From Armatimonadota bacterium (GTDB lineage: Bacteria > Armatimonadota > Fimbriimonadia > Fimbriimonadales > ATM1): a DNA stretch of 64,000 nucleotides. The stretch is taken from NCBI GenBank assembly GCA_040289295.1, contig PSLA01000001.1, positions 33,287 to 97,286 on the forward strand, written 5' to 3'. The translations under genes were made by a program, and so were the position numbers. Positions 46,440 to 58,325 of the stretch are shown here, piece by piece (within the stretch, counting starts at the first letter, position 1; every line of letters starts with the position of its first letter). The notes beneath the pieces are model-generated. The model had not been told where the DNA came from. It saw only the letters and a list, made by a program, of their open reading frames with translations, and did not search any database.

Positions 46440-47015
46440 GTGAGCCGCCTCCGCGTCCTCGTGGCGGACGACGACCCTATCATCCGCCTTGATCTCAAAC
46501 AGATGTTGGCGAACCTCGGCTATGAGGTGGTCGCCGAGGCCGGTGACGGCAACGAGGCGGTGCTTCTCGCGCGCTCGGTCAAGCCCGACGTGTGCGTCCT
46601 AGACGTTCGCATGCCGGAACGAGACGGCATCTCAGCCGTCGCGGAACTCGTCGCGGAAGGCATATCCGCAGCCATCGTGCTGACTGCCTACAACGACCAG
46701 GAACTGGTGCAGAAAGCCACGGATGCTGGCGCATTCGCTTATCTCATCAAGCCGTTCAAGCCTCAAGACCTGCCACCCGCCATTGAGGTCGCCGTCTCTC
46801 GCTTTCGACAAACCCAGGCGCTCCACAAGCAGGTCAAGGAGCTGAACCAGCGCCTGGAAGCACGCAGAGTAATCGAGAAGGCGAAGGGCGTGCTCATGCG
46901 CAGGCAAGGTATCTCGGAAGAGGAAGCCTACAAGCGAATCCGACAGCGCAGCATGGAAACACGGCGGAGCATGCGCGAGGTCGCTGAGGCGATACTGATG
47001 ACGGGGGACATGTGA
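46440..47015 (+). CDS. REC-ANTAR response regulator (PdtaR/AmiR-NasR type)
   Basis: Receiver domain VLVADDDPIIR...DVRMP...LIKPF, then ANTAR RRVIEKAKGVLMRRQGISEEEAYKRIRQRSMETRRSMREVAEAIL. Confidence 0.85.
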   Translation: MSRLRVLVADDDPIIRLDLKQMLANLGYEVVAEAGDGNEAVLLARSVKPDVCVLDVRMPERDGISAVAELVAEGISAAIVLTAYNDQELVQKATDAGAFAYLIKPFKPQDLPPAIEVAVSRFRQTQALHKQVKELNQRLEARRVIEKAKGVLMRRQGISEEEAYKRIRQRSMETRRSMREVAEAILMTGDM

Positions 47016-47070: not shown

Positions 47071-48090
47071 GTGACGGTACGACGAACCAGAATATGGCTT
47101 GCTGCGGTGGGAACGGTCGCTCTCTTGGCGGGTTGCACCGGCGGAAGCGACCGGGGGAGCAACCTCGCCTCCGAGAAGGGCGACGACGATGGAGCGTTCA
47201 AAGTCGCACTCATCACGCCGTCGCCAGTCAACGACTCAGGTTGGAGCGCCCTTGCGTATCGGGGCCTCGAGGCGATTCGGGTGAACCTCGGCGCAGAGGT
47301 CAGCAATGTGGTCGCTTCCACGCCAGCCGACATCGAGGACGCGATGCGCTCGTTCGCCCAAAAAGGGTTTGACCTCATCATTGGCCACGGCTACGAGTAC
47401 AACCAACACGCTATCAAAGTGGGCAAGGAGTTCCCTAACACCGTATTCGTCAGCTCGTCCGGCGATCAAACGGCGAAGAACGTCGGCGCCTTCCGATTCT
47501 ATCTCGAGCAAGGCACCTATCTCTTGGGAGTGCTGGCCGCGAAACTGTCGAAGTCTGGCGTGGTCGGCATGGTAGGAGGCCCGGACATCCCCAGCATCGA
47601 GAGCACGTTTCAAGCGTTCGAGGCAGGAGCCAAGGCAGAACGGCCCGACATCACGGTTCTCAAAGCATACACGGGCTCGAATGGCGACATCGGTGCCGCT
47701 AAGCAGCAAACTCTCGCATTCATCAACCGAGGGGCAGACATCATCATTCACCAAACCAACGCCGCGGCGGCGGGCGTGTTCGAGGCCTGTCGTGAACGGA
47801 AAGTGTGGGCATTCGGAACGAACAGCGACCAGTCCTCGGTTGCTCCGGACGTGGTGCTCGCGAGCGCGGTGATTCGTGCGGATACGGTGTTCACCGACCT
47901 TGCCGCCCGCGTGCGGGATGGCAAGTACTCCGGAGCCGTCGAACTTGTGGGAGTCAAAGAGGGCGCCATCAACGTCGTATTCAACCCTAAACTGCTTGAC
48001 AAGATTCCAAAAGAGTATCAGGACATTTTAACAAGACAGTTCGCTGAGATTATGAGCGGCGATCTCGTCGTGCCCAAGTTGGAGTTCTGA
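47071..48090 (+). CDS. BMP-family (PnrA/Med-like) ABC substrate-binding lipoprotein
   Basis: Lipobox LLAGC. FKVALITPSPVNDSGWS and GFDLIIGHGYEY motifs. GGAGGAAGG upstream. Confidence 0.85.
   Translation: MTVRRTRIWLAAVGTVALLAGCTGGSDRGSNLASEKGDDDGAFKVALITPSPVNDSGWSALAYRGLEAIRVNLGAEVSNVVASTPADIEDAMRSFAQKGFDLIIGHGYEYNQHAIKVGKEFPNTVFVSSSGDQTAKNVGAFRFYLEQGTYLLGVLAAKLSKSGVVGMVGGPDIPSIESTFQAFEAGAKAERPDITVLKAYTGSNGDIGAAKQQTLAFINRGADIIIHQTNAAAAGVFEACRERKVWAFGTNSDQSSVAPDVVLASAVIRADTVFTDLAARVRDGKYSGAVELVGVKEGAINVVFNPKLLDKIPKEYQDILTRQFAEIMSGDLVVPKLEF
48081..48084 (+). promoter_or_regulatory. Candidate Shine-Dalgarno (GGAG) 8 nt upstream of the inferred CTG start at 48093
   Basis: GGAGTTCTGAACCTG. Position only. 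A weak 4-nt motif. Confidence 0.35.
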
Positions 48091-48092
48091 AC

Positions 48093-49440
48093 CTGGAGAT
48101 TCAAGTCCGCGCGGTCACGAAGCGTTTCGGCGACGTCGTCGCCCTTAGCGAGGCGTCGCTGACGATCCGTACCGGCGAAGTTCACGCCCTGCTCGGCGAG
48201 AACGGCGCGGGCAAAACCACGCTCGCCTCCATTCTTTCAGGTAACCTGCAGCCCACATCGGGCGCACTGATCGTTGACGGACGAAACGTGCGCTTCCGGG
48301 ACGCGGGGGTGGCGCGCAACTTTGGCATCGACATAGTGCACCAGCACTTTATGCTAATTCCTGCGTTCACCGTTGCCGAAAACCTCGCTCTGTTTGGCGC
48401 GACGGATGGCGTGTCAGAGTTAGACGTTTCACCCGACGCGATTGTGCGCGACCTGTCGGTCGGCGAACAACAGCGGGTGGAGATTGCGCGGGCGCTTGCG
48501 TCCGGGCGCGCAGTCGTCTTGTTCGACGAGCCGACAGCCGTTCTCACGCCTGACGAGTCGCGTCAGTTGCTTGATCGCCTGCGCCGCCTTGCGGACGAGG
48601 GCAGGGGCGTTGTCCTCATCACCCATCGAGTGGAGGAAGCGCTCGCTGTCGCCGACCGGATCACTGTTCTTCGCGGCGGAAAGGTAGTGCGTCAGTTGAC
48701 CCCACGGGAGGCAACCGAGGAAACTCTCAAGACCCTTATCGCAGGTGGCGAGGTGCAGCTGGAGGTAAGCAACGGCGAAAGCCACCCAACTGACGAGATT
48801 CGGGTTCTCGCGCAGGACGTGTGCGTCAGAAGCGATAGGGGGCACATCGCGGTCGCGGGGGTTACCCTATCGATTAGAGCCGGCGAGGTGGTGGGCGTCG
48901 GAGGCGTTGACGGGAATGGGCAGCTGGAATTGGCGGAGGCGATCGCAGGCGTCCGAAACTATGAGTCTGGAGCCGTGAAGACCACAGGAAACGTCGCCTA
49001 CATACCAGCAGACCGCAACCGAGACGGCCTTGCGCTCTTGATGACCGTTCTCGACAACCTTCTGATCGCGGGACATCGCAGGAGGAACCTCCGCGTCGGC
49101 CCGCTTTTGCATCCTCGGCGAGTCCTACAGTGGGCGCGTTCCGTCCTTCGGCGGTACCACGTTCGCCCCCAAAGGATCGACCTCCCCCGCCCTCAGCGGC
49201 GGCAATCGGCAGAAGCTCCTCGTTGCGCGCGAGCTGGACGCCAAGCCTGATGTTATCGTCGCTGTCCATCCAACAAGAGGCCTCGACGTTCGGGCAAAGG
49301 CGCAAGTCCATCGCATGCTTCAAGAGGCGAAGGTGCGCCGCTGCGCCATTCTCCTCGTCAGCGCCGACCCTGACGAACTCTCTTCCCTATCAGACCGCAC
49401 CCTCGTCATGAGCCGAGGGCGGTGCAAGGACAGCACGTGA
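48093..49440 (+). pseudogene. Two-domain ABC ATPase of the BMP-family importer, split by a 1-nt frameshift (or sequencing error) and lacking a canonical start
   Basis: Frame A (48093-49190) contains Walker A GENGAGKTT, LSVGEQQRVEIA and VLFDEPT. Frame B (about 49189-49440) encodes LSGGNRQKLLVARELDAKPDVIVAVHPTRGLDV...ILLVSADPDEL. Total length is 1348 nt, which is 3n+1. The switch maps to the C5 run at 49184-49188. Confidence 0.75.
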
Positions 49441-50444
49441 GGCTCATCCCCATCCTACTCGGCTTATTGCTAACCCTCGCGCTCACCCTCGCCGCGTTCG
49501 GTTTGCCTGTCCTCGATTCGCTCGGCCATCTATGGGAAGGGGCGCTGGGCGATAAGTTCGCCATTCACCGCACGCTCGTCAAGGCAAGCCCCCTGATACT
49601 CGCCGGCCTCGGCATGGTCGTAGCGTGGCGGGGCGGCATGTTTAATATTGGCGGCGAGGGGCAGCTCCTCATGGGCGCGTCAGCGGGGGCGATCACGTAT
49701 CACCTCCTCAGCCGAATCCAAGGTCCCGCGCTAACTGTGCTGGTGTTAGCCGCGTGTTGCCTGGCGGGCGCGTTGTGGGCCTGCATTGCCGCGCTTCTCT
49801 ACACGAAACGAGGCGTCAACGTAGTTATCAGCACGATCCTCCTGAACTTCGTCGCAATTCATATGGTGTCGTACCTCGTGCGCGGGCCGCTCCAGGCAGT
49901 GGGCGAGACAATCCCTCAGACGACGCCCCTGCCGGCAAGCGCAATGTTCCAGCGCCTCGACCCGCAAAGCAGCTTGCACACCGGGTTGTTCATCGCCCCG
50001 CTGCTCGCCCTAACCGTGCACGTGTGGCTGAAGTTGACCGCGTCGGGCTTTCAATTACGCTTGGTAGGGCAGAACCCGTCGGCGGCTCAAGCGGCACGGA
50101 TACCGGTCGCGCAAACGCAGGTGCTCGCCCTCACCGTCAGGGGCGCGCTGTGCGGCCTTGCGGGAGGTGTCGAGTATGTCGGCGTCAGTGGCTACCTCTT
50201 CGACGGCTTTTCACCCGGCTGGGGGTACTTGAGCATCGCGGTCGCGCTTCTGGGTGGCCTGGAGGCTTGGGGCGTGGTGCTTTCGGGCCTCTACTTCGGA
50301 GCGCTTGTCGCCGGTTCGAGGAACCTCGAGGCATTCGGTGGTGCGTCCTCCGCATTTGTGTATGCGGTGCAGGGCATTGCGGTGATTGCGTTCGTCGCGC
50401 TGCAACAATGGGCGCGCCGGAAGGTTGAGAGGACCGCTTCATGA
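49437..50444 (+). CDS. ABC transporter permease (BMP-family importer, first subunit)
   Basis: Polytopic, with the GGMFNIGGEGQLLMGA motif. The GTG at 49437 forms a GTGA overlap with the ATPase stop. Confidence 0.8.
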   Translation: MRLIPILLGLLLTLALTLAAFGLPVLDSLGHLWEGALGDKFAIHRTLVKASPLILAGLGMVVAWRGGMFNIGGEGQLLMGASAGAITYHLLSRIQGPALTVLVLAACCLAGALWACIAALLYTKRGVNVVISTILLNFVAIHMVSYLVRGPLQAVGETIPQTTPLPASAMFQRLDPQSSLHTGLFIAPLLALTVHVWLKLTASGFQLRLVGQNPSAAQAARIPVAQTQVLALTVRGALCGLAGGVEYVGVSGYLFDGFSPGWGYLSIAVALLGGLEAWGVVLSGLYFGALVAGSRNLEAFGGASSAFVYAVQGIAVIAFVALQQWARRKVERTAS

Positions 50445-51325
50445 GCGAGCTCCTCGGCGTTATCGGCGCCATGCTGTCACTCGGCACTCCACTCGTCATC
50501 GCGGCAACCGGGGAAACGATTTCAGAGCGCGCCGGAGTGCTGAACATCGGCCTGGAGGGCGCGATGCTCGCCTCGGCGTACGCGGGCTTCTACACTTCCT
50601 GGCAAACCGGGAGCCCGTACCTCGGCCTGCTCGCAGGCTGCCTCGTGGGGGCGCTCGTGCTGGGGGGAACCGCGCCGCTGGTGCTGCACCTCGGCGCTGA
50701 CCAGGTTGTCGTAGGTACAGGAGTGAACCTGCTCTGCTTGGGCGTCACGGGCACGTTGTTCGTGATGGCATTCGGTCGCGCAGGGCAGTTGGTGCAAGTT
50801 CCCACGGTCGGAAAGTTCGCGGGGGACCTCAGCCTGAATGTCGTGATGCTTGCCGCCCCTGCGCTCGTATACCTGAGTTGGCGCCTCCTTTTTCGCACTG
50901 ATTGGGGCCGCGCGCTTCGTGCAGCCGGTGAAATGCCGGAAGCCGCAACAGCCGCCGGCTGGTCGGTCTACCGCCTCCGTCTGCAGGGCATCCTCGCATC
51001 TGGGCTCACGGCTGGTCTGGCGGGGGCGTACCTGAGCGTCGCGCAAACGAACTCCTTTGCGGAAAACATGACGGCAGGGCGCGGGTTTGTCGTGATTGCG
51101 GCGGTAACATTCGGGCGATGGACCCCGCTCGGAGCAGCCGCCGCGGCAATGCTGATCGCATTTGCCTATGGTCTACAGTTCTTGATCAAAGCGTATTCCT
51201 TGCCGCTGCCGTACCAGCTGTTCGACGCGCTGCCGTATCTGATTGCGCTCGGCGTACTGGTGGGCAGTGGGCGAGGCAAAGCAGGCCCCGCGGCTCTCGC
51301 AATGCCCTACAAGGAGCACCGGTAG
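50441..51325 (+). CDS. ABC transporter permease (BMP-family importer, second subunit)
   Basis: ATGETISERAGVLNIGLEGAML motif. ATGA overlap with the previous permease gene. Confidence 0.8.
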   Translation: MSELLGVIGAMLSLGTPLVIAATGETISERAGVLNIGLEGAMLASAYAGFYTSWQTGSPYLGLLAGCLVGALVLGGTAPLVLHLGADQVVVGTGVNLLCLGVTGTLFVMAFGRAGQLVQVPTVGKFAGDLSLNVVMLAAPALVYLSWRLLFRTDWGRALRAAGEMPEAATAAGWSVYRLRLQGILASGLTAGLAGAYLSVAQTNSFAENMTAGRGFVVIAAVTFGRWTPLGAAAAAMLIAFAYGLQFLIKAYSLPLPYQLFDALPYLIALGVLVGSGRGKAGPAALAMPYKEHR

Positions 51326-51374: not shown

Positions 51375-52211
51375 ATGAGGCTGACACGAATCGCCCGCTT
51401 CTCCTGCGGGCACAGGTTCTGGAACCCGGAGTGGAGCGACGACGAGAACCGCCGCGCGTTCGGACAGTACGCTTCACCCTATAACCACGGCCACAATTAT
51501 CTCCTTGAAGTAACGGTGGAAGGAGCCGTACGTCCTGAAACCGGTATGGTGATTAACATCGGGGACGTGAAGAAAGACATCGTCGAGCAGGTAGTACATG
51601 CGCTCGATCGGAAGAGCCTTAACGACGAGGTGCCCCCGTTCGACCGAGTCGCTCCGAACCTTGAGAACCTTATTCGTTGGATCGCAAATCGGATCCCCGC
51701 GCCCGGAGGAGCTAAACTGTGCAGGTTGCGACTGTATGAGATGCAGGACTTCTACGCGGAATTGTCATTCGACGCTGGCGACGCGAAGGGGGAGCGCAAA
51801 GTGCTGACCCTGACGCGCGGCTACCACTTCTCCGCTTCGCACCGGCTGCACAACCCCCAACTGTCCGACGAAGAAAACCGCGAGCTGTTCGGAGCGTGCA
51901 ACAACCCACACGGTCACGGCCACAACTACGAGATGGAGGTTACCGTCGGCGGCCAGATGGACGAAACCACAGGAATGATCGTGGATATTGACGCCCTGGA
52001 TGAAGTGGTGATCCGAGAAGTCGTTGAGCGCTACGATCATCGGAACCTGAACATGGAGTTGCCCGAGTTCGCCGACAAGAACCCGACCTCCGAGGCGCTA
52101 CTAAAAGAAATTTGGAACCGCCTCGAGCCGACCGTTCCAGCCAAACTGGTGCGTGTGGTTTTGAAAGAAACACCGAGAAACGTGTTCGAATACACCGGAG
52201 GTGATGCGTGA
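51375..52211 (+). CDS. Tandem-duplicated 6-pyruvoyl-tetrahydropterin synthase / QueD-like protein (two PTPS domains in one chain)
   Basis: Domain 1 has FSCGHRF...[12 protein letters not shown]. Domain 2 has FSASHRL...[18 protein letters not shown] chose the start at MRLTRIARF (51375). Confidence 0.85.
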
Positions 52212-52777
52212 CCGACCGTCTCCAAGAGGTGTACCGTCGGCTCCTGGAAGAGATTGGCGAAGACCCCAGTCGGGAAGGGCTCGCCAGGACGCCCAGTCGC
52301 GCGGCGAAGGCGATTCGCTTCCTAACGCGCGGCTATCAGCAGAGCCTCGTCGACATTGTGAACGGCGCGGTATTCACCGAGAACCTTGAGGACATGGTCA
52401 TCGTGCGCGACATTGAGTTCTTCAGCCTCTGCGAGCACCACTTACTGCCGTTCTTCGGCTTCGCCCACGTCGGCTACATCCCGAACGGCAAGATCATCGG
52501 CATCAGCAAGATCGCGCGGATCGTGGATATGTTTGCGAGGCGCCTCCAGGTGCAGGAGCGCATGACGCAACAGGTCGCCGAGGCGCTACACGAGACTCTG
52601 GAACCTCGCGGCGTCGTGTGCGTCTCCGAAGCAAAGCACCTGTGCATGATGGCGCGGGGCGTTGAGAAGCGCGCTTCCAACGTCTTAAGCAGCTACCTGA
52701 CGGGCGTGTTCCGCGACAACCCCCCCACACGGCAGGAGTTCTTCGAGTTGATTCAACAAAGGAGGACGTATCTCTGA
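52208..52777 (+). CDS. folE: GTP cyclohydrolase I
   Basis: [14 protein letters not shown] and [23 protein letters not shown] motifs. GTGA overlap with the PTPS gene stop. Confidence 0.92.
52759..52765 (+). promoter_or_regulatory. Shine-Dalgarno AAGGAGG 8 nt upstream of the inferred CTG start at 52774
   Basis: Perfect 7-nt anti-SD complement inside the folE 3' end. The spacing suits initiation at 52774. Confidence 0.55.
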
Positions 52778-53481
52778 GCCGCATCCCCAACGCGTGCCTG
52801 GTAACGGGAGCCAGCAGCGGTATCGGCCGTGCGGTGGCGCTTTGTCTTGCGCGACGAGGCGTGCACGTGGCGCTCAACGGGCGCAACCGGGAACGACTTG
52901 AACAGACCCGTCAAGCCTGTGCCGAAAGCGGCGTGGATGCGTTCGCTGTTGATGGCGACGCGGCCGACGAGGCGGTACTGCGCGAGCTCTTACTCCTCTT
53001 GCCGGAAGGGCCGATTGGAGCCGTCTTCGCCGCGGGCTACGCCCGTTTCGGTGATACTCTGTCGCTCGAAGCCGAAGTCTGGGACTCCAGCATTCACGCC
53101 AACCTAACCGCACTCTATCATGGCAATCGACTTGCGATTGAGGGCATGCTTTCTCGGGGCGGAGGGCGCATCTTGAACGTCTTGAGCGTGGCGAGCAGGG
53201 TCGCGTTCCCCTCCTCGGCGGCGTACGTCGCTTCGAAGTACGGCGCGCTCGGACTCACGCGGAGCCTCGCGGCTGAGTTTCGTTCGCGCGGGATCGAAAT
53301 CATCGCCTTCATGCCCGGCTCAACCAACACCGAGTTGTGGAACAGCCAGGGCGCGGCGCCCGACCGCGAACGCATGATGAAACCGGAAGACGTCGCCACC
53401 GCGGTGGCGAACGCGATCCTGCACGAGGGCGACGCTTTCTTCGACGAGGTGCTACTAATGCCTCCGGGGGGGGTGTTGTGA
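52774..53481 (+). CDS. Classical short-chain dehydrogenase/reductase (sepiapterin-reductase-like candidate), inferred CTG start
   Basis: [10 protein letters not shown] (52804-52833), NVLSVAS and YVASKYG (YxxxK). The first canonical start, GTG 52834, would remove the cofactor-binding motif. Confidence 0.78.
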
Positions 53482-54509
53482 TGCGGGTCGGCATCATCGG
53501 CGCAGGAGCTATGGGGCGGACGCACGCGCGGCACTATTCGAAGATGGACGACGTCTCCCTCATCGTCTTCGACATCGAGCGCGAGTCCGCGGAGTCGCTT
53601 CGAAGCCAAGCGGCGAACGCCAGCGTTTGCAACAGCCTCGATCAACTTCTGTCCAGCGTGGACGCGGTTGACGTCTGCCTGCCTACGCATCTACACAAGG
53701 AGGTCGTCCTCACGGCGCTCGAAGCGAAGCTACCCACCCTCTGCGAAAAACCCCTCGCGCGCACCGTTGCCGAGTGCGCCGAGATGGTGGATGCGGCGTA
53801 TCGCCACAGCACGTTGCTCATTCCCGCGCAGGTCGTCCGCTTCTTCCCGGAGTTCGAAACTGCGCACAGGGTCGTTAAGTCGGGGAGATTGGGTGTCATC
53901 TCTGCCATACGAACGCGACGGGGCGGCGCGCAGCCCAGAGGCGCAGGCGAATGGTTCCGCAACCCAGACCTTTCGGGCGGAGTCCTGTTGGACCTCGCTG
54001 TGCACGACTTCGACTGGATTCTGTGGACGTTTGGGCCTGTCGCGCGAGTGTTCTCTCAGGCACTGACCTGGTCGAACGTCGGCGCGCTGGATTACGCGCT
54101 GACGATTTTGACCCTCGATAGCGGCGCGCTCGCCCACGTGGAGGCGACATGGGCAGATCCGGGCGGCTTCCGAGTGACGTTCGAGGTCGTCGGTTCGGAG
54201 GCGCTCCTCGAGTTCGACAGTCGGCTGAAGGCCACGCTGCGAACGGCCACAGACCCCCTCTCCCTGTGGGAGAGGGTTGGGGTGAGGGCAGCTGAGTCCA
54301 ACCTTGCGCCGTGCGACGATCCTTACTTCAAGCAACTGCGCGCGTTCTTGAAGGCAGCTATGGGAGAGGCGCCTCCCGCCGTTCGTCCTGAGGAGGGAAT
54401 GGCCGCCGTGGCAGTTGCGGAGGCGGCGATCGAAAGCGCATGCAGCGGCAGGCCTGTGGCCCCCTCGCGAATCGAACCCCGGCGAACTGCCGAGGCGTCT
54501 GAGATCTGA
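53481..54509 (+). CDS. Gfo/Idh/MocA-family oxidoreductase (contains one in-frame repeat copy)
   Basis: [19 protein letters not shown] Rossmann motif and the CEKPLA motif. TGATG overlap with the SDR stop. Repeat-encoded segment [15 protein letters not shown]. Confidence 0.8.
   Translation: MRVGIIGAGAMGRTHARHYSKMDDVSLIVFDIERESAESLRSQAANASVCNSLDQLLSSVDAVDVCLPTHLHKEVVLTALEAKLPTLCEKPLARTVAECAEMVDAAYRHSTLLIPAQVVRFFPEFETAHRVVKSGRLGVISAIRTRRGGAQPRGAGEWFRNPDLSGGVLLDLAVHDFDWILWTFGPVARVFSQALTWSNVGALDYALTILTLDSGALAHVEATWADPGGFRVTFEVVGSEALLEFDSRLKATLRTATDPLSLWERVGVRAAESNLAPCDDPYFKQLRAFLKAAMGEAPPAVRPEEGMAAVAVAEAAIESACSGRPVAPSRIEPRRTAEASEI
54256..54292 (+). repeat. Family-1 repeat, copy c
   Basis: CCCTCTCCCTGTGGGAGAGGGTTGGGGTGAGGGCAGC, inside the oxidoreductase ORF. 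Confidence 0.92.
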
Positions 54510-56977
54510 TGATGCTCCTCCCTTTCGCGCTCCTTCTGGGGCAAAGCACCGAGCCGTCAGGGGTCTGGCAAGGTCAGGAGTGGCGTGTGAACCCGGCGCA
54601 CGCGTTGATTTGGGATGGTCGCGCGTACACGCCGGTGGGCCTGGCAGTGCCGGCAGCGACGGAGGCGATCCGCAAGGCGGAAAGCGCGGGTGTTAAAGAC
54701 CTTATGATCGAGGCAAGCCTAACCGATGATTGGGCGGCTGCGTTCGCTGCGGCGGAGCGTCTGTCCGCTCGCTACCTGTTGTCCCTGAACGAGCGTATGC
54801 CGCAAGCCTCCGGATGGCTGTGCACACCCGAGGCATTACGGGTTCTGAACGTCAGTCATCGTTCGGTGGTGGAGGTCGCATTGCCGGGCGCAGTGCGGGC
54901 GTACTTTGTGGTCGTTGGACCGTCGTCTTCCATCATGGCGCGTGGCTGGGCGACGATGCACTTCGGCAAGGCCTCCGTGGAAGTGAACCTGAAGGTTAGC
55001 GCGGACGACTACCAGGTGCTTCTCTTCCCACTGATGCGAGAGAGCGACCTCGTGGACTATTGGGAGGGGCTGGACGCAAGGCGCGACGAAGTAATACGAA
55101 AACTGAGGGACGCTGCACCAGGAAAGGGGCTCCGCGGCATAGTAAATCCGTTTGGCCGACCCCCGTCTCACTTCCTCTCCCTGCGGGAGAGGGTTGGGGT
55201 GAGGGCAGCAGACGGCTGGACGACGTCCGGCGGGATCGTGCCCGATTCTATTCTGTTCCGCCTCGAGTTTGAACAGTATCTTCGGGAGAAGTATCAGACG
55301 ATCGAGGCGCTCGCACGCGCATGGCGCATTGACCCGCTGGGGCTCAAGACTTTCGCCGAGGCCGCGGCGCTGATTCCACTCTTCTCACCCGACATGGGCG
55401 TGGACGCGTTCCTCGACCCAGTGAACGACCGAACCGTCTCCGGCCGCCGGGTTGGATCAAGGTTCTGGGACGACGTGCAAGTGGTCATCGAGAGCGCGTG
55501 CGTTCGAAGGCTTTCTCGACTTGCTTCGGCGACTCGGAGCATCGCCAACGTGCCGGTAGTATACGACTGGGCTGGCTGGAGCCCCCTTCACGAGCGGCGA
55601 GATATCGCCGGCGACGGCATTGGTATCCCTACCGTAGGCGCGGGGCGGACCATAGACTCCCTCTCCCTGTGGGAGAGGGTTGGGGTGAGGGCAGCAGACG
55701 CTCTGTCCTCCGCGCTGGCGTGGGGGTCGCGATCGTGGATCGTAAGCACGCGCATCTGCTTTTCAGAAAACGGCGCACCCTTCCCAACCGAGGCACAGTT
55801 GCGCTCGGTGATTGCAGCGCTCGTGGACCTTGGCGTGAAGGGGTGGTTCGTGGAGAGCACGGGAGGAGACGAGGCAGTGTGGGTGGCTGCGATGAACGGT
55901 GAGGCGCAGCAGGACCTCGCTCTGGGGGACCGCTCTCCGCGCGCCATCTTCTATCCCATCAACGCTCGTTACCCGGCGGACACGATGCAACTCCCTGGCG
56001 GCGTATGGTGGCTTCCCACTCCGGCTGCAGGCGATAGGCTCGATGTGGGTGCGAACTATGAAGCGTACCGCCTCACCGCGCCCTATGATCGGCATATCGC
56101 CATCTGGACGACTGGCGCTCCGCGAAAGACGAAGCTGCTGACACCTAACCCTCAATCTGTAACGCTGCATTCGGTTTCGGGAATGGCTGTTGACGCACGA
56201 GTGGTGCGCGACGGCATAGAGGTTACGATTCGGAATGAGCCGCTGCTAATCTTCGGCGCGGACACGACGCCCGTTCCCGAGGACGCAGTTCAGGAACTAG
56301 TAGAGGCGGAGGCTGCGATTACGGCGGAGGCTGTGCGCAAGGGCGCCGACATTACTGAAGAGCGTTTTCTCTTCGCCGACGCGTTGCGCAAAGCGAAGAC
56401 GTCGCCCGGAGCATCGCTGATGCAGATGACAGAGGCCTATCGCCGAATGCTGCTTAAGGTCGCGCCGTACGTCTGGCGAGAAGGGGAGCGGGCGGACTCG
56501 GCAGGGTTGGGTGTTCGAATGCAGTCAGCGGGCTGCTCGCAGGGAGAGGCGCTGCGGCTGCGGCTGGCCATTCCAGCGCGCTTTGTTCAGGTGGACGGCC
56601 GCGACGGGTTCAATGGAATGAGGGCAGTGTACAAGCTGTCTGTATCCGGCAGCCGCGACGAGCACACGGTGTGGTTGGCTGCGAGGATCCCGGAAGAGTC
56701 TCGACCTTTCGTCCGCGTCGAGGTCAAGGGAGACTCCCTCTCCCCGTGGGAGAGGGTTGGGGTGAGGGCAGCACTGTCCGCACCGCCGGTTTCCGAATAT
56801 GGCGATGGATTCGGGTGGTACCAAGTTGGGACGATGCTCCTACCGAAAGGGGAGTATGAGTTCACAGTTTCCATGGACCCAGGCGCGCCGGTGATGGACA
56901 TGGCGATTGACGTGTTGTTGGCTACGCCTCAACCGTTCCGGCCGTCCGGCCCGCGGATGCCGAGGTTCCTTCGATAG
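54509..56977 (+). CDS. 822-aa secreted/exported protein of unknown function (three in-frame repeat copies)
   Basis: The 2.47-kb ORF is stop-free, whereas antisense ORFs here are under 140 aa. Signal-like N-terminus MMLLPFALLLGQS. TGATG overlap with the upstream gene. No motif I recognise. Confidence 0.6.
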   Translation: MMLLPFALLLGQSTEPSGVWQGQEWRVNPAHALIWDGRAYTPVGLAVPAATEAIRKAESAGVKDLMIEASLTDDWAAAFAAAERLSARYLLSLNERMPQASGWLCTPEALRVLNVSHRSVVEVALPGAVRAYFVVVGPSSSIMARGWATMHFGKASVEVNLKVSADDYQVLLFPLMRESDLVDYWEGLDARRDEVIRKLRDAAPGKGLRGIVNPFGRPPSHFLSLRERVGVRAADGWTTSGGIVPDSILFRLEFEQYLREKYQTIEALARAWRIDPLGLKTFAEAAALIPLFSPDMGVDAFLDPVNDRTVSGRRVGSRFWDDVQVVIESACVRRLSRLASATRSIANVPVVYDWAGWSPLHERRDIAGDGIGIPTVGAGRTIDSLSLWERVGVRAADALSSALAWGSRSWIVSTRICFSENGAPFPTEAQLRSVIAALVDLGVKGWFVESTGGDEAVWVAAMNGEAQQDLALGDRSPRAIFYPINARYPADTMQLPGGVWWLPTPAAGDRLDVGANYEAYRLTAPYDRHIAIWTTGAPRKTKLLTPNPQSVTLHSVSGMAVDARVVRDGIEVTIRNEPLLIFGADTTPVPEDAVQELVEAEAAITAEAVRKGADITEERFLFADALRKAKTSPGASLMQMTEAYRRMLLKVAPYVWREGERADSAGLGVRMQSAGCSQGEALRLRLAIPARFVQVDGRDGFNGMRAVYKLSVSGSRDEHTVWLAARIPEESRPFVRVEVKGDSLSPWERVGVRAALSAPPVSEYGDGFGWYQVGTMLLPKGEYEFTVSMDPGAPVMDMAIDVLLATPQPFRPSGPRMPRFLR
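55173..55213 (+). repeat. Family-1 repeat, copy d
   Basis: TCCTCTCCCTGCGGGAGAGGGTTGGGGTGAGGGCAGCAGAC, inside the 822-aa ORF. Confidence 0.92.
55654..55699 (+). repeat. Family-1 repeat, copy e (bounded by AGAC on both sides)
   Basis: AGAC-TCCCTCTCCCTGTGGGAGAGGGTTGGGGTGAGGGCAGC-AGAC, inside the 822-aa ORF. Confidence 0.92.
56736..56772 (+). repeat. Family-1 repeat, copy f
   Basis: CCCTCTCCCCGTGGGAGAGGGTTGGGGTGAGGGCAGC, inside the 822-aa ORF. Confidence 0.92.
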
Positions 56978-57056: not shown

Positions 57057-58325
57057 TTACGACTCCTCTCGCTGCTGCTTGTGCTTGCGGATGAACGCGG
57101 GCACGTCGAGGTCTTCCGGTTGTGTTGACGTTCCGTCCTGCTTTGCGGGGCGAGGGACACCCGTTGCCGGCGCGGTTCCGGGAGGCAAGCTGTTGCCATC
57201 GGTTGCGGCGCGCTCGGTCGCAGGCTGGGGCGTACCGGCGCGCTGATGTACACGCTCGCTCTCTGCGGACGTGGTGGCGCTGGATTCGCGACCCCCTCTC
57301 CCTGTGGGAGAGGGTTGGGGTGAGGGCAGCAGACGCCCCGATTCCGTTCCGGCGGCGCGAGGTGGTCGGGCGGTCGGGTCAAAACCAGCGGCGAGGACGG
57401 TAATGCGGACGTCGCCTTTGAGGGCGTTGTCATACACTGCGCCGAAGATGATGTTGGCGTCGTCCGCCGCCGCAAGGTCTGCGATGTAACTCATCGCCTC
57501 ATTCATCTCCGCTAAGGTGAGGTCCTCCGCGGACGTAACGTTGACGAGGAGTCGGCGTGCGCCGTGGATGTCGCTTTCGAGCAGCGGGTTGGCGACGGCA
57601 GACTGCGCGGCCTGCATCGCACGGTGCTCGCCAGTGCCAATTCCGATGCCCATCAAAGCGGGGCCAGACTGGGACATCACGGCTCGCACGTCTGCGAAGT
57701 CCACGTTGATGAGGCCCGGCACCGTGATGATCTCAGAAATCGCCTGCACGCCTTGGCGCAGTACGTCATCGGCAACGCGAAACGCCTCGATGGTGGATGT
57801 GTGCTTGTCAACTACGGCGAGGAGCCGGTCATTGGGAATAGTGATAATCGTGTCGACGATTTCGGTTAGTTCGGCAATTCCCTTTTGTGCTTTGATTTCG
57901 CGCCCCCGTTCCCACATGAAAGGCTTTGTCACAACGGCGATGGTAAGCGCTCCGACATCCCGGGCGAGCTCCGCGACGATCGGCGACGCTCCGGTTCCGG
58001 TTCCGCCCCCCATACCGGCGGTGATGAAGACGAGGTCCGCGCCGGCAAGCACATCGCGGATCGCTTCTTTGCTCTCTTCGGCTGCTTGCCTTCCCCGTTC
58101 GGGATCGCCTCCCACTCCGAGCCCCCGCGTTACCTTTTCTCCGACTTGGAGTTTCACAGGCGCCTGCGAGTCCTCGAGCGCCTGGGCGTCGGTGTTGATT
58201 GCGACGAACTCGACGCCTCGGACCCCAGTTTCGATCATGCGGTTGACGGCGTTGGAGCCCCCTCCGCCGACGCCTACCACTTTGATTACCGCTTGTCTTT
58301 CAGTGTTCTGCTTCGTTGCACTCAT
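57057..58325 (-). CDS. ftsZ: Cell division GTPase FtsZ
   Basis: [23 protein letters not shown] and the C-terminal peptide [10 protein letters not shown]. Confidence 0.95.
57294..57334 (+). repeat. Family-1 repeat, copy h (inside the ftsZ linker-coding region, antisense to the gene)
   Basis: CCCTCTCCCTGTGGGAGAGGGTTGGGGTGAGGGCAGCAGAC. Confidence 0.92.

Follow-up and report, generated by a model that had tools for sequence, protein, structure and literature searches.

The first three of five overlapping genes in a 64,000-nucleotide stretch of an Armatimonadota genome (hereafter the window) encode a tandem 6-pyruvoyl-tetrahydropterin synthase (PTPS), a GTP cyclohydrolase I (FolE) and a classical short-chain dehydrogenase/reductase (SDR). 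We propose, with somewhat more confidence than doubt, that this segment (51375-53481) is a module for making a tetrahydrobiopterin (BH4)-type tetrahydropterin, that the same PTPS probably also feeds queuosine synthesis, and that the two remaining genes, for a Gfo/Idh/MocA oxidoreductase and a protein of 822 residues, stand apart from it. An earlier sequence-only reading had suggested for the cluster a reduced-pterin pathway rather than queuosine synthesis. The BH4-type module is supported here, whereas the exclusivity is not, the PTPS being the sole COG0720 gene in a genome that also has QueC, QueE and Tgt. Our argument runs from gene content, motifs, synteny and co-occurrence to enzyme activities, a dual role and co-transcription that we infer.

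In the proposed pathway, FolE would convert GTP to dihydroneopterin triphosphate, and the second domain of the PTPS would convert this intermediate to 6-pyruvoyl-tetrahydropterin. The degenerate first domain is expected to be structural and probably lends its conserved Glu to the neighboring site in a pseudo-hexamer. Reduction of the side-chain keto groups would fall to the sepiapterin-reductase-like SDR. The product is expected to serve an aromatic amino acid hydroxylase encoded on contig C48, with recycling via a pterin-4a-carbinolamine dehydratase encoded on contig C10. The same PTPS, acting promiscuously, would also provide the 6-carboxy-tetrahydropterin from which preQ0 and queuosine are made. 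The two remaining genes would form a separate carbohydrate pair packed into the same compact transcription unit.

Active site of the tandem PTPS

PF01242 matches the PTPS in two stretches (E 7e-58). Domain 1 spans about residues 1-135 and domain 2 about residues 141-278. The latter can be aligned over its whole length with the rat (PDB 1B66) and human (3I2B) enzymes at about 50% identity, and its site is complete: three zinc histidines, a Cys at the Cx5HGH position, an Asp-His pair and a Glu lie in register with rat PTPS, the last three being the equivalents of rat Cys42, Asp88-His89 and Glu133. In the published signatures, Cx5HGH denotes PTPS-II, Cx3HGH QueD and ExxHGH PTPS-III (PMC5041015). 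An assignment to subtype II is supported by this signature in domain 2 and by E values that are far better with rat and human PTPS (2e-33) than with E. coli QueD (4e-12). In domain 1 the zinc histidines and the Glu are retained, and the catalytic Cys and the triad His are gone, with DR in place of DH. The pattern recurs in the other tandem proteins compared. The Cx5HGH, Asp-His and Glu elements of domain 2 are intact in 61 of 61 tandem proteins (that of the window and those of 60 further Armatimonadota loci), and domain 1 is degenerate in all 60 of the others, often further than here.

Animal PTPS is a single-domain homohexamer, whereas the PTPS of the window has a degenerate N-terminal copy fused to it, so that only half of its sites can be active. 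We infer that three tandem chains assemble into a mimic of the PTPS hexamer in which every second site is functional. A further difference from animal PTPS is that the Lys preceding the catalytic Cys is Ala or Pro in the genus-level clade of the window. This change and an Asn-to-His change beside the Cys are confined to that clade, and both are absent from G078, a genome of the same family. No active-site difference consistently sets apart the tandem proteins whose genomes also encode a separate QueD from those whose genomes do not. A PTPS-III role in folate synthesis was considered and rejected: the ExxHGH signature is lacking, both domains having Pro where its Glu would stand, and a FolB is present.

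The closest known counterpart by description is the bimodular bPTPS-II of Synechococcus sp. PCC 7942, which is reportedly responsible for BH4 synthesis in that organism (Kong et al. 2006, FEBS Lett 580:4900, cited in PMC5041015). Both have two PF01242 domains in one polypeptide and a Cx5HGH signature, and most relatives, like Synechococcus, also have a separate QueD-type paralog. Unlike Synechococcus, the window’s genome has no separate QueD paralog, and the host is a non-photosynthetic Armatimonadota lineage known from a metagenome-assembled genome. With E. coli QueD (4NTK) and the dual PTPS-I/III enzymes, the window PTPS shares the T-fold family and the substrate. It differs from QueD in that its Cys aligns in the PTPS-II register and its gene is not clustered with queC or queE.

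Queuosine genes and pterin consumers in the genome

The source genome is a 2.06-Mb, 97.7% complete metagenome-assembled genome in 51 contigs, and the names carried by its close homologs put it in the order Fimbriimonadales. The tandem PTPS gene is its only PF01242/COG0720 gene, both by a profile hidden Markov model search and by tblastn with the short QueDs of four relatives, which matched the tandem gene only. QueC and QueE are encoded side by side on another contig (C4:70996-72539) with no PTPS gene beside them, and Tgt is encoded on contig C2; all three are intact. The five-gene cluster contains no queC, queE or tgt, which all lie on other contigs, and the PTPS gene shows no physical clustering with queC, queE or queF. 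The sequence-only reading had said that a lone queD in a genome with queC, queE and queF would refute its proposal, and a lone gene of this kind is what we find, beside QueC, QueE and Tgt.

The two genes whose presence that reading had made a check of the BH4 route are both in the genome: a PF00351 aromatic amino acid (phenylalanine-hydroxylase-type) hydroxylase with an HDVAGH iron-ligand-type motif (C48:96669-97382), and a pterin-4a-carbinolamine dehydratase (PF01329; C10:54500-54760) that bears a DHHP motif. The neighborhoods of these two genes held nothing informative. There is one FolB-family gene only (C27:42690-43025), so folate synthesis needs no PTPS-III, and a FolX paralog for a monapterin route is lacking. 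Judged by its predicted genes, the organism has a queuosine pathway without a dedicated QueD and a consumer of reduced pterin.

Distribution across Armatimonadota

To survey co-occurrence, one set of 201 Armatimonadota genomes was searched several times over. The tandem PTPS occurs in 78/201, QueC in 124/201 and the hydroxylase in 31/201. All but one of the hydroxylase carriers (30/31) have the tandem PTPS. Outside the order to which the window belongs, it is found in 11 of 12 hydroxylase carriers; among hydroxylase-free genomes, the count is 48/170. QueC is missing from 25 of the 78 tandem carriers, which shows that the tandem enzyme also acts outside queuosine synthesis.

Many genomes combine the tandem gene with a short single-domain Cx3HGH PTPS encoded next to QueC (e.g. 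G007, G073, G135, G153). Families f26 and f9 likewise keep a separate Cx3HGH QueD, often beside QueC, in addition to the tandem gene. In the sister family f2 (Fimbriimonadaceae), each of the 16 genomes carries one PF01242 match besides that of the tandem gene, and in the seven genomes read this was a separate short Cx3HGH protein each time (7/7). The short QueDs of relatives carry CRFPHGH or CARLHGH. A lone COG0720 gene together with QueC, QueE and Tgt is likewise found in G156 and G078. The three genomes of the window’s own family, from two genera, have the tandem PTPS only, with QueC intact; about 15 genomes of family f5 also have the tandem PTPS only, with QueC present and both the hydroxylase and the SDR absent. 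A search for another queD, suggested earlier as a check on the PTPS, comes out empty in the window’s genome, and the sister family keeps a separate QueD beside its tandem PTPS. To judge from these sequences, the tandem enzyme is by descent a non-QueD paralog, and in the lineage of the window it is the sole candidate for the QueD step.

Two further observations concern the short paralogs. The short PTPS next to QueC in G073:C3 (L103 4544-4987) has C-E-T-M-HGH, that is, the CExxHGH motif described for dual PTPS-I/III enzymes. Families f13 and f29 (e.g. G012, G026, G121, G184) have the tandem and a short PTPS and no QueC, so their short paralog must serve a role other than queuosine synthesis.

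The SDR as a candidate side-chain reductase

The SDR has the hallmarks of the classical family, TGxxxGxG and Ser/YxxxK, with G12, A13, G16, G18, S138, Y151 and K155 invariant in the family alignment (A2). Searched against PDB, the family profile gave 191.8 bits for 2EHD, 191.6 for 2JAH and 191.0 for 2BD0, the sepiapterin reductase of Chlorobium tepidum, followed by 171 for the fourth hit. The Chlorobium enzyme makes L-threo-dihydrobiopterin. It is, like the SDR of the window, a classical SDR of about 240 residues, and the two align over their full length. It leads the fourth-ranked match by about 20 bits and is tied with an uncharacterized Thermus SDR and clavaldehyde dehydrogenase, so that it is not uniquely the best match.

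Synteny adds to this likeness. An SDR ortholog adjoins the tandem PTPS, with or without FolE between them, in 17 Armatimonadota genomes from five families, and for all Armatimonadota PTPS-adjacent SDRs tested, the best match in the window’s genome is this SDR (e.g. 179 vs 100 bits). PTPS-adjacent SDRs of Planctomycetota and Krumholzibacteriota were rejected as orthologs and belong to a separate FabG-like lineage. The role of sepiapterin-reductase partner that had been suggested for the SDR thus gains from a conserved PTPS neighbor and from the tied top score of the Chlorobium enzyme, and we regard the protein as a candidate side-chain reductase of the sepiapterin-reductase type. Genes 1-3 are best read as a BH4-type module of known kind, a bimodular PTPS-II joined with a putative Chlorobium-type reductase.

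The SDR might instead be a ring reductase, like dihydropteridine reductase (DHPR) or like FolM/PTR1, that regenerates or makes the pterin of the hydroxylase, with the PTPS working mainly for queuosine. All three named enzymes belong to the SDR family and are alike in size. In addition, the dehydratase is encoded in the genome without an identified dihydropteridine reductase, and the subtype assignment of the SDR is soft. Against this, none of the three appears among the 60 best PDB matches, whether the single sequence or the family profile is searched, and Chlorobium sepiapterin reductase ties for first place. The conserved adjacency to PTPS also suggests consecutive steps, and there is no FolX paralog to provide monapterin. 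On balance, we consider a ring reductase quite improbable.

Arguments for and against a dual role of the PTPS

The separate QueD has been lost from the window’s lineage and QueE, QueC and Tgt have been kept, so the tandem PTPS probably feeds queuosine too. Specifically, a bimodular PTPS-II-type enzyme may have taken over the QueD step after loss of QueD in at least two lineages, the window’s family and f5, with one site making both products; this we put forward tentatively, as somewhat short of an even chance. QueD catalysis passes through a sepiapterin-like intermediate (PMC9894224), and promiscuity becomes plausible if the first half-reaction is shared in this way. There is precedent for one COG0720 enzyme serving two pathways: dual-function PTPS-I/III enzymes have been validated, according to the summary of Phillips et al. 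2012 in PMC5041015.

Several observations weigh against the module and the dual role proposed here. The pairing of PTPS-II and QueD activities is to our knowledge undescribed, and we know of no enzyme for which such bifunctionality has been demonstrated. In the genus-level clade of the window, the domain 2 motif reads CNNPHGHGH, a literal string that fits both Cx5HGH and Cx3HGH. The QueD model TIGR03367 scores the PTPS at 114 bits, above its cut-off of 89, and a review warns that in cyanobacteria nearness to rat PTPS fails to separate QueD from PTPS-II (PMC5041015). The Fisher p of 2e-5 for hydroxylase and tandem PTPS (11 of 12 against 48 of 170) comes from a naive test that ignores the kinship of the genomes. 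The SDR is not clearly set apart from generic SDRs, given the equal scores of 2EHD and 2JAH, and its best NCBIfam matches do not include the model for eukaryotic-type sepiapterin reductase. Of the 19 genomes in the window’s order with both hydroxylase and tandem PTPS, 7 lack an ortholog of the SDR, among them G078 from the window’s own family. The same is true of 19 of all 31 hydroxylase carriers, so the SDR must be dispensable or replaceable. Finally, PTPS and SDR genes are adjacent in five genomes that have no hydroxylase.

Some of these points would fit a simpler account, in which the tandem PTPS is a QueD of unusual architecture that serves, with FolE, preQ0 and queuosine only, the SDR and the downstream genes being passengers. 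Besides the TIGR03367 score, its standing as the sole COG0720 gene alongside QueC, QueE and Tgt speaks for this, as do the automatic naming of relatives as 6-carboxytetrahydropterin synthase, the f5 genomes that have it alone with QueC, and the common adjacency of FolE and QueD (PMC5041015). Such an enzyme would not be expected in the 25 tandem-carrying genomes without QueC, nor alongside the separate Cx3HGH QueDs of f2, f26 and f9. The alignment of the catalytic Cys with rat Cys42, the conserved SDR partner and a hydroxylase that needs a tetrahydropterin, with no FolX route evident, likewise favor the BH4-type module, and we judge a QueD-only role unlikely.

The Gfo oxidoreductase and the 822-residue protein

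The sequence-only reading had suggested that the Gfo oxidoreductase and the 822-residue protein tailor or use the pterin. In this form all five genes would belong to one pathway, with the last two, for example, glycosylating the reduced pterin. Glycosylated pterins exist in cyanobacteria and Chlorobium, and the four overlapping junctions, kept in two close relatives, would fit such an operon. The Gfo and 822-residue genes adjoin PTPS only in the window’s family, however, and neither occurs near PTPS at the 58 other loci examined; in G078 the pair is set apart from PTPS by a gene on the opposite strand, and FolE and the SDR are absent there. The 822-residue protein has 36 homologs, and those with a name come from Armatimonadota. 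Elsewhere they are encoded beside ftsZ/ftsA or transketolase, never beside PTPS, which places the gene in the right-hand synteny block; the PTPS gene belongs to a left-hand block with an ABC (ATP-binding cassette) importer.

The predicted structure points the same way. The AlphaFold (AF2) model of the 822-residue protein (predicted local distance difference test, pLDDT, 88.5; predicted template modeling score, pTM, 0.86) matches GH106, GH98, GH30, GH35 and CBM6 in Foldseek at probability 1.0, with whole-chain TM-scores of at most 0.3. The protein is predicted to have a multi-domain glycoside-hydrolase-like fold with a C-terminal CBM6-like domain, and not to be a glycosyltransferase. The nearest PDB entries of the Gfo protein are sugar, inositol and glycoside dehydrogenases. 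Together the two look like a carbohydrate pair rather than pterin-tailoring enzymes. On synteny and predicted fold we reject a five-gene operon for a tailored pterin, which we consider very improbable, and treat both genes as passengers that are not part of the pterin module.

Layout of the locus

Direct reading of the sequence bears out the five overlapping plus-strand frames of 51375-56977, and Pfam and NCBIfam confirm the domain assignments made earlier for the first four (Table 1). FolE scores 244.5 bits against TIGR00063, above the equivalog cut-off of 181.6. All four junctions overlap: GTGA for PTPS/FolE (start GTG 52208 within the PTPS stop), CTGA for FolE/SDR (CTG 52774 over the FolE stop), and TGATG both for SDR/Gfo (ATG 53481 over the SDR stop) and for Gfo/822-residue gene (ATG 54509 over the Gfo stop). 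The first canonical start of the SDR is GTG 52834, and its TGASSGIG nucleotide-binding motif is encoded upstream of this codon (52804-52827), so translation must begin earlier. The SDR appears to start at CTG 52774, the sole candidate, 8 nucleotides past an AGGAGG. The CTGA junction is kept in the relatives L009 and L010 (80% identical), as are the overlaps at all four junctions. Such overlaps are common in a compact 2.06-Mb genome, and they argue for co-transcription, not for shared function. Promoter and terminator scans gave background levels only.

A convergent ftsZ-ftsA-DUF881 block bounds the cluster downstream. On its upstream side are an ANTAR response regulator gene and the genes of a Bmp/PnrA-type ABC importer, the last permease gene being only 50 nucleotides away from the PTPS gene. 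Such an importer directly precedes the tandem PTPS at about 29 of the 60 loci compared in Armatimonadota, with many families represented. The nearest solved relatives of its binding protein bind purine bases, and the imported substrate may accordingly resemble guanine (guanine itself, a pterin, or preQ0/queuine). Compared with intact orthologs of 496-572 residues (L010, L030), the ATPase gene is broken by a +1 frameshift that falls in a C-run near 49188, and it lacks a canonical start ahead of the Walker A region; the split reflects either genuine loss of the gene or a fault in the assembly. The response regulator (46440-47015), directly upstream of the importer and PTPS unit, has an ANTAR RNA-binding output domain and could control that unit by antitermination.

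Table 1. Genes and repeat copies at the locus, in window coordinates.
Feature	Position	Strand	Evidence or remark
Bmp/PnrA-type ABC importer	47071-51325	+	PF02608, PF00005, PF02653
Importer binding protein	47071-48090	+	nearest solved: purine-base binders AtzT 6PI5, Brucella 3S99
Importer ATPase	about 48087-49440	+	frameshifted near 49188
Importer permeases	49422-50444 and 50441-51325	+	
Two-domain PTPS, 278 aa	51375-52211	+	PF01242 twice
FolE (GTP cyclohydrolase I), 189 aa	52208-52777	+	PF01227 E 2e-72; TIGR00063
Classical SDR, 235 aa, CTG start	52774-53481	+	PF00106
Gfo/Idh/MocA sugar-type NAD(P) oxidoreductase, 342 aa	53481-54509	+	PF01408, PF22725, PF02894
822-aa protein, hydrophobic N-terminus	54509-56977	+	no Pfam or NCBIfam match
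Hairpin repeat CCCTCTCCCTGTGGGAGAGGGTTGGGGTGAGGGC, in frame in Gfo gene	54254-54292	+	pattern search
Repeat copy, in frame in 822-aa gene	55171-55209	+	insertion vs L009 ortholog; low-confidence loop 220-233
Repeat copy, in frame in 822-aa gene	55657-55695	+	absent from both orthologs; low-confidence loop 378-387
Repeat copy, in frame in 822-aa gene	56734-56772	+	absent from both orthologs; low-confidence block around residue 745
Repeat copy, in frame in ftsZ	57293-57330		

In-frame hairpin repeats

A hairpin repeat of roughly 35 nucleotides, CCCTCTCCCTGTGGGAGAGGGTTGGGGTGAGGGC, occurs in frame once in the Gfo gene, three times in the 822-residue gene and once in ftsZ. The three copies in the 822-residue gene are indels relative to the L009 and L010 orthologs and fall in surface loops of low pLDDT. 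At up to 5 mismatches, the genome holds 68 copies, 41 of them inside open frames of at least 250 codons. The repeat resembles the in-frame palindromic elements of Rickettsia.

Implications

The paralogs of COG0720 are a textbook example of enzymes whose annotations get confused among the biopterin, queuosine and folate pathways, and the locus described here adds the phylum Armatimonadota to the short list of bacteria that likely make a BH4-type cofactor. The result also corrects the idea that a sugar oxidoreductase and a large 822-residue protein belong to the pterin pathway. Sister lineages share the tandem PTPS, some of them alongside a separate QueD and others not, and so amount to a natural experiment, in which the supply of queuosine by a PTPS-II-type site is directly testable. 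If the dual role proposed here is true, one active site would yield both 6-pyruvoyl- and 6-carboxy-tetrahydropterin, making the tandem PTPS a PTPS-II/PTPS-I dual-function enzyme.

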